Assembly: GCA_964440235.1 (NCBI GenBank)
Contig: CAYTQI010000004.1
Coordinates: 1 to 55,468 of the forward strand
Length of the DNA: 55,468 nt
Direction of reading: 5' to 3'
Source of the DNA: an uncultured Planctomycetia bacterium
GTDB taxonomy: Bacteria > Omnitrophota > Gorgyraeia > JABMRN01 > RBG-13-46-9
Shown here: piece by piece, positions 33,001 to 39,000 of the stretch
Position numbering within the stretch: the stretch's first letter is position 1
How the letters are laid out: each line of letters starts with the position of its first letter
Program-made: the position numbers

Positions 33001-36000
33001 CATATACAATTTCCACCCGACCCCGCGCCCGGCCGATTACCGCCCATTCTGCCTCTACCACGGCTGCCGGCTCTTCGTCTGCCCCGGCCGCCACCTGTTC
33101 CCGGACCCTGTCCAAACGGACCCGTTCCGTCACCGAATGGCATGACACACCTCCCGCGTTATTTCGGGCCCATACCAAATTTTGACCCGACACTAGGATT
33201 ATCGGTAGATTTTAATTCGCCTTTTTTATATTTCTCTACGGCTTCCTTAACACTCCCAGAAACTCCTGTAATAACACCGACACCGCCGGCCTGTAATGTC
33301 TGAAAAGCATTTGGGCCGACATTGCCGGTCAAAACCGCTTTCACCTTTTTTTCCGCCACAAACTGCCCTGATTGAACTCCCGCTCCGCCCATAGCGTCCA
33401 TATGCGGATTTTGAATCGCTTCAAAATTTAGTGTATCTGTGTCAACAAAAATAAAATACTGACACCTTCCGAAGCGCGGATCGATCTGTGAATCCAGGGT
33501 ATTGCCCCGCGAACTAGCGCATATTTTCATCTTTTATTCACCTTCCTTTTCATCCGGATGCTCGCATTCTGTCTTTTCAACCCCATACCCCCTGCCGGAA
33601 CCGGGGTTGCACAGGCTCTCCCCGCCTTTTAAAGTGCCTTTGATAAGTTTTTCCGCCACATCCTCTATTTTACCTTCGATTCCCACAATCACCTCTATCC
33701 CTAATTCACTGAAAAATCCGCTCGCGCGCATTCCCATTCCTCCCGCTATTATGGCCTTAACGCCCTGTTCATGAAGAAATTGAGGTATGGCTCCGGGGGA
33801 ATGCCCGGGATTAGGAACAACTTCTTTCTTTACAACCCTTCTGTCCTCTATATGTAAAATGGTAAAATCCGGGCATCTTCCGAAATGCGCGGATACAGAT
33901 CCTCTATCCGTAGAAATCGCTATTTTCATATATACTCCAACGGCAATTTTAACATTGATTTATACGGATTGCAACACGGATATACGGGGAAACCCGGTAA
34001 GATTACAACGGGCCGCTCCTGTTATATCCGTGTCTTTAATCCGTATAAATCAATGTTATTTAGTTTTTTTCTCAGCGGATTCGAGCTCCTTTATGTGCTC
34101 GTTTATCGCCTTGATTTCATCCTGCATAGCCCTGGCCTGCTCTTTCAGCATTCGGGCTTCATCCTTTGGATTGATTTCAGCGCCATACTGATATGGGGCA
34201 TATCCTCCATATTGATATCCCTGGTGCGGATATCCATATGCGTAAGGATAGGCGGCACCCGCGCCAAAACCACGGCCCCAGCCGCGGCCCCAGCCACGGC
34301 CGCGTCCTCTTCCAAAACCACGGCCATAACCAAACCCCCGGCCCATGCCAAAAATCGGGTTAGCGTAACCCGGCGTTGGATAACCCGCGCAGTAACCCGC
34401 GGCACGGCCTGTCATCGGCCCCTGCCCCTGCGGTCCTGTTCCGTCTCCTCCTGGCATCTTAAACACCTCCCTCCGTTAATGATAATCATTTTCAATAATA
34501 GATAAAACCATATACCTACCTGCACTTCTCGCATAAACCGTAAAAATGAACTTGATGGCTTAATATCTTAAACTTATATTTGTCAAAAAGCCCTTTTGTT
34601 ATCTTATCAAGAAGATCCTTTTCCTCGTTAATAAAATCCGTATAATCAATCACCCGGCCGCATTTTGTGCATACCAGATGATGATGATGCCTTTCCCCTT
34701 TCGGGCCGACAGCCAGTTCATATCGCGCTTTACCGTCGCCAAAATCGAATCTGGCCACAAGCCCCATCTCGATCAGGAGCTCAAGCGTCCTGTAAACCGT
34801 CGTAAGCCCGAGAGCCGGATAGATCTTATGCACGCGAAGATATATATCTTCGGCGCTCAAGTGTTCACTGGCCCGGCTCAAAACCTCCAGTATTTCCCGG
34901 CGGGGCACTGTCAACCTGTGCCCGCCCCCGTGAAATCTACCGTGCCACCAGGGCCTTCCCGCGGCGAATCTTCTTCTATATCCTCTCGGCATAAATACTC
35001 CTTATTGATAATGGTTTCCATTATCAAGTATACACTATTTACCACCCTTTGTCAAGGTTTAAAATAGCTGTCCCCTTTTTGGGGTGCCCCGTTTTTGAGG
35101 TTAGCAGATACGGGGTAACTGGTCGGATTCAAGCATCGGCAGGATGCGCCGCAGGCCAAGTGCGGTTTTTAGATATACCTTTTTTTTATGGCCAGAGACA
35201 ACCTCGCCTATTACGCGCGCGTTTTTACCGATAACTTTTTTTACGCGCCCGGCTTCTTCCCTTCTTACAAAAGAGATAAACTTCCCCTCATTCGCTACGT
35301 AAAGAGGGTCAAACCCCAGTATATCGCACATTTTTTTTACGTTCGTTTTTACCGGAATTTCTTTTTCATAAACTTCTATGCCAAGATTTGACGCGCTCGC
35401 TATTTCGCAAAGCGCGGTGGCGAGACCTCCTCTTGTCGGATCGCGCATCACGCTTATGCGTTTTGATACCGCGAGGCACCTTTCAACCTGAAAATTTACG
35501 TTCATGCAGTCGCTCTTTATTTTTGAGAAAAATTTAAGTTTTTCTCTGGCGTTTATTATTGCCATGCCGTGCTCGGCAATTGACCCATTTATTATTATGG
35601 CGTCGCCTTTTTTCGCCTTTGAAGTAATCCGCGCGGCCCGATTCGGTATAACCCCAATCCCCGATGTATTTATAAACAATTTATCCGCCGACCCTTTTTC
35701 TACGACTTTTATGTCGCCCGTAACGATTTTTACCCCTGCCTTTAAGGAAGCGTCTTTTATTGACCCGGCGAGCCTATCCAGCACGGAAAACTTCAATCCT
35801 TCCTCGATAATAAGTGACAGGGATATAAAAAGGGGCTTCGCGCCTTTCATGGCGATATCGTTCACGGTTCCAAAAACGGCAAGTTTGCCTATATCGGCGC
35901 CCGGAAAAAATAGCGGTTTCACGACGTATGAGTCCGTGCTGAAAGCGAGCCTTCCGCTACTCATATTAAGTTCCGCGGCATCCGCGGCCTCATCAAGGAT

Positions 36001-39000
36001 CCTGTTGGAAAACCTGACACGCAACTTCTCAATGATCTCGTGCATAAGTCTTCCGCCGTTTCCGTGAGCTAAGGTAATCGGGTTATTTTTCATACCTGTA
36101 ATGCGCCGCGCAGGCGCCTTCAGAGGAAACCATGCAGGGGCCTACCGGATTTTGAGGCGTGCAAGTCTTTTTAAAAAGTCCGCAATCCGGCGGCTCTTTT
36201 ATGCCCCGGAGGATATCGCCGCAAATACACCCGCGCGGCGCCGGGGCGCTTTTTCCTGTGAGCTTGAATTTTCTTTTAGCGTCAAATTTTCCGTATTTTT
36301 CCCTGAACTTAAGTCCGCTTTTTTTGATTAAACCAAGCCCCCGCCATCGGGAATCCCCGGCCTCAAAAACAGAATTTAATATTTTTCGCGCGGCTTTATT
36401 CCCCTCTTTCGTGACCGCCCTTTTATATTCTATCTCAACATCATGCTTTTTTGAAGCTATCTGCCTGAGCAGGCGCTCTATGCCTTTCAGAATATCAATT
36501 GTCTCAAACCCCGTTATAACGCAAGATTTTTTATAAAGCTTCGCGATTTTTTCGTAAGGGGCGCTTCCGGTTATGACGCTTACGTGTCCCGGGCATATAA
36601 AACCGCTTATGTCCGCTTCTTTAGAGTAACATATCGCCTCAAGCGCCGGAAAAATAAGCTTGAAATACGGCAATACGAAAAAGTTGCGCACTTTTTCCGC
36701 TTCGGCCTTAAGTATTGTCGCGGCAACCGTCGGAGAAGTGGTTTCAAAACCTACGCCCATGAAAACCACGTTTTTATCGCCGTTCTTTTTGGCTATGTCC
36801 AGCGCGTCAAGGCAGGAATAAACGATCCGTACCGAAGAACCGCGGCGCCTCATCCCTTCGAGGCTCGCCTTTGTTCCCGGCACGCGCATCATGTCGCCGA
36901 AAGTGGCTATTATAACGTCTTTCTTTTGCGACAGCTCTATAGCCCGGTCAATATCCCCCTGCGCCGTAACGCACACCGGACAGCCCGGGCCCGAAATAAG
37001 CCTTATCCCCTCCGGCAGAATTTTCTTTATGCCGGATCTGGCGATTTCCATGGTATGCGTGCCGCATACTTCCATTAATTTAATCTCTTTCACGGCTTAC
37101 CTTTTTAAGTTCTTCCAGCACCTCAAGCGTATCTTCCGCCTCGTGCCGGCTTACCCTGCCTATCGCGAAACCCGCGTGAACAAGTACATAATCGCCTTTT
37201 TTTACGCCTGTCAGGATCCCGAGAGAAACTTTTTTCCGGACGCCGCCAAAATCCACGACGGCGCTTTGCTTTTCTATATTTTTAATTTTTGCCGGAACGG
37301 CTAAGCACATAATATTGCCCCAGTGATATGTTAAAATCATTAACGGGAGTTTTTTCGTTCGTAAACACCCTGAACCCGGACGAGATAAGCCGCTTGATTA
37401 TTTTTCTTTTTAAAAATTTGTTTTGAAATACGCCTCCGGATAAAGCGATGTCCGTAAGCCGGGTTTTTTTTGACAATTTTTTGACTGTGTCCGCGATAAT
37501 ATTAACCATTGAATTATGAAATTTCACCGCCATATTTTTTTTGTCTTTACCCATCTTTAAATCTTCAAGCATGCCCAGAAAAATCCTTTGGGGATCAATG
37601 ATATATTGCCTGTTTCGTTTTGAAATATCAAATTTATAACTTTCGTTTGTTTCCCCCGCGCACATGGCCTCAAGCCTTAAGGGGGCCTCGGCTTCGCGCG
37701 AGGCGTGAGTGCAGGCCCCGAGTAGCGCGGATGCAACATCAAAAAGCCGCCCGGCGCTTGATGTAACGGGAGAATTTATATTTTTTTCGCATATCGACAG
37801 CACGGCCTCTTTTTCCCGTTTTCCGGCGCCTTTTATGAACGGGGCCGCTTTTTTGCCGAGTACGCCAAGCGCCATCCGCCAGGGTTCGCTTACAACTTTT
37901 TCCCCGCCCGGCATTTTATTATATTTCAAATGCGCGAGCCGCGAAAATCCTTTTTTACCCACAAGAAGAAACTCACCGCCCCAGATATTGCCGTCAGCGC
38001 CGAAACCGGTTCCGTCGAAAGAAACGCCTATAACGGATTTTTCCAGGCCGTGTTCCAGCATTACGCTCGCTATGTGGGCATGGTGATGCTGAATACGGTA
38101 AAGCCCGCCTGTCGGCCGGGTGAAGGCGAAGGCTTCGGCGAATTTTGTAGAAAAATAATCGGGATGAAGGTCGCAGGCTATCAGAAATGGCTTGTTTTTT
38201 CCGGCTACTTTTAACGCCTTTCTCTCGAAAAGCTCGTAGTTTTCCGCGTAGCTTAAATCCCCTATCTCGGGCCCGAAACATAAACCTTTTTGACTCGCAA
38301 AAAGAAATTTGTTTTTTACATCCGCCCCCAGGGCAAGTATGTTTTTTTTTGGCTTCATGCCTGTCTTTAAACTATTCTATGTCAAATGACACAACTTCGA
38401 TTCTTGAAGCCGGAAAAAAAGTAACCTCGAGTTCGCATTTCTCAAGTATCGTATCCTTTGCCAGGACCCTGAAAGTCTCCCGAAAAGACTCTTCTTTTAC
38501 GCCTGTAAATTCCCCGATTTTAAGCCTTACTTTCGTGACAACCCTGGCCCCCTCTTTTCCCGCGTGCTCGGTTATCCCTTTGATAACCGGCTGTATAAGG
38601 TGTGTTTCATGCATTGTTTGCCTCCATTATAAGTTTTTCTATTTTATCAATTGCTTTCGCGACTCTTTCGGATATCCTTGCCCCGAATGAGATATCACCC
38701 GGCTGTACCCCTAACAGAAAAATCGCGGCTCCCGTTTGCGCCTTCAGGTATTCAATAAACATCGACGGTGAAATATCGTGTGTGGTTAACCCGCTTCTGG
38801 ATATATCCCGGGAATCAAGAATTCCGTATGCTCCGGGTTTTTTATTTAGGTGCGCGGCGTCAATGAGCATCACTGTATCGGGTTTTTCCGCGGCGATTTT
38901 ACCAACGTGGTTTTCCGGGGTTACGCCCGCGTCGATACAAAACGCTTTTATCTTATCGTTAAGCCTTTTTACAAGTTCCGGGCCGAGGCCGTCATCCCCT

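Follow-up and report, generated by a model that had tools for sequence, protein, structure and literature searches.

A conserved, streamlined Hyp gene set with a zinc-domain-free HypA and a Kae1-only HypF beside a group 4 [NiFe]-hydrogenase of Omnitrophota

A run of five hyp genes in an uncultured Planctomycetia bacterium (GTDB Omnitrophota; Gorgyraeia; JABMRN01; RBG-13-46-9) forms a conserved, streamlined set that, with no help from HypB, probably assembles the NiFe(CN)2CO centre of the Mrp-linked group 4 hydrogenase encoded next to it. The window, which is the whole stretch of DNA analysed, comprises 55,468 nucleotides (assembly GCA_964440235.1, contig CAYTQI010000004.1, positions 1 to 55,468). 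The genome (G000) is a MAG, 96% complete in 52 contigs, and gene absences described below, here and in relatives, are read from MAGs. We confirmed the coordinates of the five genes on the minus strand; hypA-hypF-hypC-hypD-hypE form one tightly packed run behind hycI, with gaps, in the order hycI/hypA/hypF/hypC/hypD/hypE, of -8, +13, -29, -14 and -11 bp. The relevant features are as follows.

28746..32279, minus strand: two MinD-type ATPases with a 4Fe-4S insert (PF01656 and Fer4)
35101..36093, minus strand: HypE, 330 aa, C-terminus PRIC (TIGR02124 over cut-off)
36083..37093, minus strand: HypD, 336 aa (TIGR00075 over cut-off, match from 32/372)
37080..37310, minus strand: HypC, 76 aa when begun at MCLAVP (full-length PF01455; TIGR00074 over cut-off); the mechanical ORF start is 37340
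37282..38358, minus strand: HypF, the Kae1-like carbamoyltransferase domain alone, 358 aa (PF17788 and PF22521 only)
38372..38614, minus strand: HypA80, the nickel-binding domain without the zinc domain (PF01155 1-69/112)
38607..39200, minus strand: HycI-type maturation protease (PF01750; TIGR00072 over cut-off, TIGR00142 just under); the true start probably lies about 45 codons inside the ORF
39234..53563, minus strand: hydrogenase operon with Rex, an AsrA/AsrB-like pair, Mrp-type antiporter subunits and an Fe-S subunit (Pfam/NCBIfam; the AsrA/B labels and the names of the small Mrp subunits are our reading, not HMM matches)
47337..48575, minus strand: group 4 [NiFe]-hydrogenase large subunit (PF00346 and PF00374; both CxxC motifs)

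In common with the canonical HypABCDEF pathway (E. coli, H. pylori and T. kodakarensis; PDB 3A43, 5AUN, 5YXY, 6G81 and 3VTH), the set has HypC, HypD, HypE, the protease, the MHE-bearing nickel domain of HypA and the Kae1 domain of HypF, metal site included. It differs in having no HypB, a HypA without the two-CxxC zinc domain, a HypF without the acylphosphatase, zinc-finger and YrdC domains, and a HypD without about 25 N-terminal residues.

The operon of this membrane-bound hydrogenase, which is intact and whose gene order is repeated in relatives, also encodes NuoH-like, small, NuoC-like and large subunits and a PhoU-like protein. The large subunit carries RICGIC (L1) and DPCYCC (L2), with all four cysteines invariant in 27/27 sequences, and a C-terminal extension after Arg that forms a cleavable tail; these features and the antiporter-like subunits are those of a group 4 [NiFe]-hydrogenase. 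Other hydrogenases of Omnitrophota, a phylum known from anoxic habitats, have been labelled group 4g (Mbh-Mrp) (passages of PMC8542988). The residues expected of the downstream machinery are all present: HypC Cys2, the HypD thiol and Fe-S motifs, the HypE C-terminal Cys, and the protease. HypD keeps CGTH, GPGCPVC and the C-terminal cysteines; comparison of N-termini revealed that the ~25 residues with which other HypDs begin are missing from it, a point that the initial annotation had overlooked.

HypA consists of 80 residues beginning with MHE (Pfam profile search), scores 58 bits against TIGR00100 (cut-off 88) and has no two-CxxC zinc domain. The initial annotation had described it as free of both a zinc finger and any cysteine; the former holds, and the latter does not, as a single C60 is present. 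Across 120 relatives among the listed homologue clusters, only 4 have Cys at this position, which is thus unconserved. Among the same clusters the length is exactly 80 aa in 114, and M1, H2, E3 and H5 show little or no variation, His5 and His17, beside the MHE motif, being family-invariant. The AlphaFold model (pLDDT 95.5) has strands 61-67 and 72-79 linked by a four-residue turn, a predicted hairpin standing in place of the zinc domain. The best Foldseek matches of the model were HypA proteins without exception, aligned over 64-67 columns with an rmsd of 1.2-1.6 A, and HypA80 is thus predicted to be the HypA nickel-domain fold alone.

Compared with 6-7 relatives, pN was 0.15-0.23 in HypA80 and 0.22-0.34 in HypF, the joint pS range being 0.68-0.96; HypD and HypE had pN values close by (0.16-0.25). 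Both HypA80 and the short HypF are under purifying selection. Of 61 loci in other genomes, 30 show the order HypA80-HypF(short) again, and this repetition, together with the fixed 80-aa length, shows that the combination is neither chance nor an assembly artefact. Several parts are shortened together, and two fetched loci (L245 and L262) carry a short HypF that is broken or even shorter, as would be expected if the short genes were decaying remnants and the complex worked without a NiFe centre, like Mbx/Ehr-type complexes. We consider this highly improbable in view of the fixed lengths over the 120 listed clusters, the purifying selection, the four invariant large-subunit cysteines with a cleavable tail and a protease, and the intact HypC, HypD and HypE.

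The HypF protein matches only positions 389-739 of the 741 in TIGR00143 (257 bits, cut-off 466) and residues 399-745 of PDB 3VTH, which bears out the earlier description of a 358-residue protein without acylphosphatase, zinc-finger and YrdC domains. A frameshifted or split hypF was dismissed: the 13-bp gap to hypA is too small, and the genome contains no HypF zinc finger (zf-HYPF) anywhere and no second YrdC. A HypF zinc finger is absent from all 41 Omnitrophota genomes with a short HypF, and 39 of these genomes have a single YrdC gene, compared with two or more in 20/20 full-HypF controls; the short form is therefore the only HypF of those genomes. (G364 was left out of the count, since its frame, at the end of a contig, still contains a remnant of YrdC.) HypD was present in 18/18 of the short-HypF genomes first tested. 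The short HypF retains the HxxxH...D metal site of Kae1 and the PGG and GGxFxN motifs, H91, H95, D115, D341, G308-G309 and N313 being invariant in 32/32 aligned sequences. These motifs and metal ligands presumably line the adenylate pocket.

The same Kae1-only architecture, cut at the same boundary, occurs in HypF1 of Cupriavidus necator H16 (394 aa, pHG1 hyp1 operon). A one-domain HypF1 needing carbamoyl-adenylate supplied in trans has already been proposed in print (passages of PMC9100943), so that the HypF part of the set is less novel than initially claimed. HypF1 is accompanied by full HypA, HypB and HypX, and its plasmid also has a full-length hypF, whereas the Omnitrophota short HypF is the only one found. 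In a quick LG+G4 tree of 49 rows, C. necator HypF1 nested with the full-length Bradyrhizobium HypF, and a single clade of all short HypFs was rejected (AU p=0.008); smaller trees with fewer taxa disagreed with one another. The Omnitrophota truncation thus appears, from the 49-row alignment, to have arisen independently of HypF1.

From the directly observed gene content, domain losses, kept catalytic residues, purifying selection, and intact large-subunit cysteines and protease, we infer a probable route of maturation. The Kae1-only HypF would bind carbamoyl-adenylate that a separate enzyme with the YrdC fold, TsaC/Sua5 or a NodU-type carbamoyltransferase, has made, and would carbamoylate the C-terminal Cys of HypE; HypE would dehydrate the carbamoyl group to thiocyanate, and HypC-HypD would build Fe(CN)2CO as usual. 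HypA80 would pick up Ni2+ straight from the cytoplasmic pool via Met1/His2/Glu3, with His5 probably an added ligand, and pass it to the large subunit without an NTPase cycle, after which HycI would cut the large-subunit tail.

TsaC with TsaD in t6A synthesis, and TobZ/NodU, provide a precedent for the carbamoyl step: there too YrdC makes carbamoyl-adenylate and Kae1 transfers it, and in the t6A pathway, where the proteins are separate, TsaC hands the free adenylate to the Kae1-type enzyme, although carbamoyl-adenylates are unstable and normally channelled (passages of PMC9654439). TsaC makes threonylcarbamoyl-AMP, whereas plain carbamoyl-AMP for HypF is putative. The genome encodes a stand-alone acylphosphatase and one TsaC, both outside the hyp locus. 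CarB, found in 5/5 genomes tested, agrees with this route; carbamate kinase was found in 0/5. NodU-type genes are present in 39/41 short-HypF genomes and 15/18 controls; this lack of enrichment led us to discard them as specific partners, as did the absence of a second YrdC gene from 39/41 genomes for a dedicated YrdC. TsaC and NodU are both near-universal with or without a short HypF, so that their distribution does not discriminate between them. HypF1 seems to work only with oxygen and is inactive or inhibitory in anaerobic E. coli (passages of PMC9100943); as TsaC, a universal enzyme (passages of PMC9654439), is present there, this argues against TsaC as a sufficient source.

It is somewhat unlikely, but conceivable, that the Kae1-only HypF uses no adenylate and no second enzyme, transferring carbamoyl phosphate (or released carbamate/cyanate) directly at the metal site to HypE. 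No dedicated YrdC partner was found, the operons contain no conserved extra gene, the genome has a free acylphosphatase, and CarB is present. Furthermore, the pair of glycines that follows the final metal-ligand Asp in 14/14 complete full-length HypFs is kept in only 4/33 Omnitrophota short forms (and 0/2 betaproteobacterial ones), so the site has been remodelled. On the other hand, PGG, GGxFxN and all metal ligands are kept, and HypF1 is inactive in anaerobic E. coli even though E. coli supplies its own HypF with carbamoyl phosphate.

In agreement with the earlier statement that hypB is absent, profile searches of the genome gave no hit to TIGR00073 at E<=0.01, and none to the G3E family (PF02492) over its full length. 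HypB exceeds the cut-off in only 24/401 Omnitrophota genomes and in 4/41 with a short HypF; its contrast with HypA (150 genomes) is overstated, since full-length HypA-like genes often lie away from hydrogenases. No full G3E match was found in five good genomes or in five single-record chromosomes with HypA80. HypB was probably lost phylum-wide first, with the zinc domain lost several times afterwards. The two losses are not tied: 3/59 zinc-free HypAs adjoin hypB, zinc-free HypA stands beside HypB in G071, G229 and G267 and on a Sphingopyxis plasmid, and full-length HypA serves hydrogenase operons without HypB in 18 genomes. The parts therefore do not make up one linked 'kit', as the initial annotation had it. 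His5 occurs in 53/117 HypA sequences, none adjoining hypB, and in 0/18 HypAs adjoining hypB, a pattern coming mostly from one clade (54 rows, SH-aLRT 83), so that the counts are not independent.

Alternatively, another NTPase might moonlight in place of HypB, be it CooC/AcsF, the MinD/Fe-S pair or an Mrp ATPase, and a different one in different genomes; we regard this as decidedly unlikely. The ATPase-type HypB of T. kodakarensis (Mrp/MinD family, PDB 3VX3) shows that the G3E GTPase is replaceable; the genome studied here encodes a CooC and, in the region of the hyp genes, the MinD/Fe-S pair, its MinD protein weakly matches PDB 3VX3/5AUN (E 6e-6), a full-length HypA-like gene lies within the MinD cluster in some relatives, and at least one candidate occurs in 9/10 genomes examined. 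However, the 3VX3 match is weaker than those to MinD and ferredoxins, the CooC gene lies inside an acetyl-CoA synthase cluster (read by eye), and the HypB-less genomes share no stand-in NTPase. The MinD/Fe-S pair was not found in 4/10 good genomes (G141, G069, G393 and G133), CooC was not found in 40/80, and an Mrp-type ATPase was found neither in our genome nor in 8/9 others examined, only in G043. G133 (9 contigs, 94%) has none of the three, the NTPases found being ParA, a pilus-type ATPase and BioD. The MinD pair adjoins hyp genes in only 1/60 fetched HypA80 regions (L043); it is a neighbour, not a required part of the set. With none of the stand-ins suggested earlier proving universal, nickel delivery without HypB remains the best reading of these gene inventories.

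Reviews describe the HypA zinc domain as conserved and essential for partner binding (among them PMC12134894, from 2025, whose cited passages have it always present and name no such reduced set), and zinc-site Cys mutants of H. pylori HypA retain 9-60% of hydrogenase activity (passages of PMC5557546); a zinc-free HypA must therefore differ in some way. HypA80 might also be only a folding or protection helper holding the large-subunit precursor open, nickel entering spontaneously from a rich pool, which we judge quite unlikely. High nickel bypasses HypAB in the laboratory (passages of PMC12134894), an observation that equally favours nickel delivery by HypA80 without HypB; five Clostridium acetogens are reported to have HypCDEF only, without HypA and HypB (passages of PMC9431212), the window contains NikR and a TonB/ABC metal-uptake cluster, and 15/61 HypA80 loci are cut or have no adjoining Fe(CN)CO cassette. 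Against this, the near-invariance of M1, H2, E3 and H5 points to metal binding. A simple motif scan of the genome found no SlyD-like or His-rich nickel store.

In 21 relatives, HypA80 is followed by a HypC-HydE fusion in place of HypF/D/E, and 20 of those genomes have HydG; there HypA80, HypC-HydE and HydG amount to three genes. A reading of these ~435-aa proteins as HypC-HypD fusions proved wrong. HydE-cassette tags on L121 and L127 were treated as false, as both loci carry a short HypF and the match reads as biotin synthase. A HydG/HypC-HydE module as CN/CO source was not found in the genome studied here, whose window uses HypF/D/E. A more far-reaching proposal, unlikely as a whole, is that HypA80 chaperones nickel on its own, without any NTPase, His5 taking over from the zinc-domain/HypB step, that HypF draws carbamoyl-AMP from the housekeeping enzyme TsaC/Sua5, with t6A chemistry feeding the cyanide ligands of hydrogenase in anaerobes, and that HypA80 also serves the radical-SAM cassette of HypC-HydE and HydG, which in relatives takes the place of HypF/D/E behind the same operon.

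At 1180 aa, HypA80, HypF, HypC, HypD and HypE together are small by residues, but, counted in genes, the claim of the smallest natural Hyp set fails against the Clostridium acetogens and the three-gene relatives. The suggested use in heterologous maturation meets a discouraging precedent in the behaviour of HypF1 in anaerobic E. coli. [NiFe] maturation genes without hypB are also reported for Frankia synton 3 (passages of PMC11879354); the Clostridium and Frankia papers report that genes are absent, but neither a HypA free of zinc nor a Kae1-only HypF as the sole HypF. Searches of openly available main articles, mostly at the level of listings, yielded no paper describing a zinc-free HypA, Omnitrophota maturation or HypC-HydE.

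Nickel insertion is portrayed in reviews as a conserved HypA-HypB nucleotide cycle in which the HypA zinc site is essential (passages of PMC5557546 and PMC12134894). If our reading is true, a widespread, selected 80-aa HypA in HypB-less genomes would show which part is really needed, in a very small protein to test. Since HypF1 is thought to work only with oxygen, the sole Kae1-only HypF of these anaerobes would be a clean system for the question of what substrate a truncated HypF uses, and the fact that HypF was cut twice independently at one boundary suggests that cells have a general carbamoyl donor.

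The genome that holds the window (G000; 1.38 Mb in 52 contigs, 96% complete) carries hycI, hypA, hypF, hypC, hypD and hypE in this order on the minus strand after a hydrogenase operon, spaced −29 to +13 bp apart:

39234–53563, minus strand: Mrp-linked group 4 hydrogenase operon
38372–38614, minus strand: hypA
37282–38358, minus strand: hypF

The five Hyp proteins sum to 1180 aa. The hydrogenase large subunit keeps the RICGIC and DPCYCC motifs and the C-terminal tail, and none of the four cysteines of these motifs varies among the 27 aligned relatives. Two further gene groups lie in the window. 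A unit at 540–7124, with NikR followed by a TonB-dependent receptor, a TrmO-like protein, FmdE and a FecCD-type ABC transporter, is a candidate for the uptake of nickel or another metal. A cluster at 26381–34992, which resembles Orange-protein-type clusters, includes Fur, two Nitro_FeMo-Co proteins, two MinD/4Fe-4S ATPases, a CoA-binding protein, a flavin disulfide reductase, a methyltransferase, an ARMT1-like protein and a 206-aa membrane protein with no Pfam match.

The HypA of the window (hereafter, with its homologues, HypA80) has 80 aa and covers positions 1–69 of the 112-position Pfam model. Its named homologues are from Omnitrophota. Exactly the same length recurs in 114 of the 120 homologue clusters listed, and any CxxC pattern occurs in only one of them, in keeping with the initial annotation of a short HypA devoid of this motif; its statement that cysteine is absent was incorrect, as there is one, the unconserved C60. 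The residues H2, E3, H5, P9, H17, K32, G34, F48, L51, F77 and D78 are invariant in the listed clusters. The AlphaFold model (pLDDT 95.5) has a helix-strand-helix-strand-strand order, in which a four-residue turn links the last two strands at the usual site of the zinc domain. This turn, together with the top Foldseek matches, all of which are HypA structures, indicates that HypA80 is, as modeled, a clean internal deletion with the C-terminal strand retained. Comparison with six relatives gave pN values of 0.15–0.23 with pS near saturation, and HypD and HypE behaved alike. According to passages of two papers, mutations at the zinc site cripple H. pylori HypA (PMC5557546) and this site is essential for partner binding (PMC13202556, published in 2026). 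Our literature search, of limited coverage, found no paper on a zinc-free HypA.

Among the best 150 HypA representatives (50% identity), 75 have 76–92 aa without CxxC, indicating from sequence that zinc-free HypA extends beyond this clade; examples are encoded on plasmids of Sphingopyxis alaskensis, where the gene adjoins hypB, and Pandoraea faecigallinarum. A nickel-domain tree of 120 rows, built on only 66 columns, needed 12 changes, at least 3 of them forced by strong branches. A pattern scan yielded 61 HypA80 loci, assigned by record title to Omnitrophota (40), Planctomycetia/Planctomycetales (12), Elusimicrobia (5) and others (4). Several individual sequences deviate from the common form. 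In L062 and L063 (genomes G025 and G333), an 88-aa HypA has one cysteine left, while the rest of the genus keeps both CxxC motifs; zinc-domain loss is apparently in progress there. The homologue at L289:6001–6243, in a record titled Nitrospirae, starts with MNETQ and lacks His2 and His5. In the 225-aa protein P0259, a zinc-free HypA is joined to an N-terminal part resembling a maturation protease, which may reflect a read-through or a genuine fusion, and HypA and a full HypF sharing one 929-aa open frame in G321 (C6:66870 onward) are a possible fusion. Several of the loci L130–L153 encode full-length HypA-like proteins that form a clade of their own, start with MHDxxF or MHETRF and lie away from hydrogenases, either beside NikR/CbiM-like uptake genes or inside a MinD-FeS/NifB-NifX/ARMT1 cluster. 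In 10 of 60 regions, a His-rich membrane protein of about 236 aa (L052:1010–1720 and relatives), often adjoining hyp genes, is a candidate nickel permease; it has no Pfam match at 1e-4 and was not found in G000.

As the initial annotation held, HypB was not found in the window's genome. Of 401 genomes of the phylum, 150 scored over the cut-off for HypA, 24 for HypB and 41 for the HypF zinc finger, the first two numbers giving an overstated contrast because many full-length HypA-like genes of the phylum lie away from hydrogenases. By a cleaner count, HypB occurs in 4 of the 41 short-HypF genomes and in none of the 21 that carry the HypC-HydE cassette, a radical-SAM fusion described below. No hypB was present at the 61 HypA80 loci with flanks of up to 6 kb, and neither five good genomes nor five single-record chromosomes with HypA80 gave a full G3E-family match. 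Three of 59 zinc-free hypA genes directly precede hypB, and 18 HypB-less genomes have a full-length HypA in a hydrogenase or hyp operon, showing that the losses of the zinc domain and of HypB are not coupled. The proposed substitutes for HypB, a MinD-type ATPase or CooC, are not universal: searches of ten genomes gave the MinD/Fe-S pair 6 times, CooC 5 times and an Mrp-type ATPase once, with none of them found in G133 (9 contigs, 94%), and the G000 query gave no CooC match in half of a larger sample (40 of 80 genomes). Of 117 HypA sequences, 53 carry His5, none of these adjoining hypB, and the residue occurs in 0 of 18 hypB-adjacent HypAs; since most His5 sequences come from one clade, this pattern is a lead rather than a statistic. 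High nickel bypasses HypAB, as described in passages of PMC12134894.

The 358-aa HypF matches TIGR00143 at positions 389–739 only, bearing out its description as cut to the last domain. All 32 short HypFs compared have H91, H95, D115, D341, G308-G309 and N313. None of the 41 short-HypF genomes (excluding G364, whose full HypF is cut by a contig end) had the HypF zinc finger, and 39 of them had a single YrdC-family gene, whereas all 20 full-HypF controls had at least two; the missing half of HypF is thus, as far as gene content indicates, not encoded separately. NodU-type C-terminal domains occurred in 39 of the 41, and because 15 of 18 controls also had them, gene presence cannot pick the carbamoyl donor. 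All 14 complete full-length HypFs have DGG behind the last metal ligand, but just 4 of the 33 short forms from Omnitrophota do, which suggests that the site was altered after the YrdC tunnel was lost. Separately from the hyp operon, G141 (C1:191439–192020) has a second Kae1/HypF_C_2-like gene in a 325-aa frame. Plasmids of Streptomyces and Citrobacter (L297, L298) carry hypE-hypF pairs with no further hyp gene within 6 kb, which might serve a nitrile or cyanide chemistry that has nothing to do with hydrogenase.

The short HypF1 of Cupriavidus necator, already raised as a precedent, has the same one-domain architecture. Passages of PMC9100943 propose that HypF1 needs carbamoyl-adenylate, supplied perhaps only aerobically, and those of PMC5350229 report it as inactive in E. 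coli, where its expression is unclear. A HypF tree of 42–43 rows was ambiguous on the origin of the short forms. When eight plasmid HypFs were added, HypF1 nested with the full-length HypF of Bradyrhizobium, and the grouping of all short HypFs into one clade was rejected (p-AU 0.008, quick tree); the Omnitrophota truncation is, on these trees, most likely convergent with HypF1. HypD is a further site of reduction by N-terminal shortening: the window's protein begins 7 residues ahead of the EVCG motif, and the offset is 7–21 in 14 rows of this group 4 clade versus 31–56 in 25 other motif-bearing rows, which include some genes fetched twice.

At the 61 HypA80 loci, the neighbor was a complete short HypF in 30, a cut or broken one in 4, HypC-HydE in 11 and a full HypF in 1, the remaining 15 having nothing adjacent or a contig end. 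Behind [NiFe] operons of groups 4 and 3b, HypC-HydE (about 435 aa; five proteins domain-scanned, one of them a HypC-HydE-HydG triple fusion) replaces HypF/D/E, usually with HydG nearby. Searches of the 21 fusion genomes found no HypD, no HypE over the cut-off and no full HypF Kae1 match; 20 of these genomes had HydG over the cut-off, and an [FeFe]-hydrogenase domain was found in 8 and not in the other 13. In the same test, 18 of 18 short-HypF genomes had HypD and none had HydG over the cut-off. The large subunits of both types form one tight clade, and a quick tree of them forces no more than one cassette swap. Comparison of these loci shows that HypA80 is retained beside the hydrogenase when one Fe(CN)CO cassette gives way to another, which makes the module relevant to HypA80; it was not found in the window's genome. 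HypC-HydE lies downstream of HypA80 at L036, L039, L041, L042, L045-47, L049, L050, L054, L057, L060, L061, L065, L067, L068, L070, L071, L076, L077 and L083, and after a full-length HypA at L122, L124, L125 and L147. Triple fusions occur at L068 (915 aa) and L248 (921 aa). Near the C-terminus, the HydG part of the former (L068:12151–14898) reads FCTAGYRC...C, i.e. CX5CX19C rather than the CX2CX22C known from other HydGs.

The window's set probably works like the Hyp pathway, from which it differs in the missing HypB and in a HypA80 and a short HypF that fall outside the definitions of their full-length families; we infer every step of the mechanism. Passages of PMC11879354 describe a hypB-less precedent in Frankia. 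The claim to the smallest natural Hyp set fails by gene count, since five Clostridium species lack both hypA and hypB according to passages of PMC9431212. The finding is real, extends across the lineage and can be tested, as a variant of a known pathway whose least known part is the zinc-free, HypB-independent HypA.
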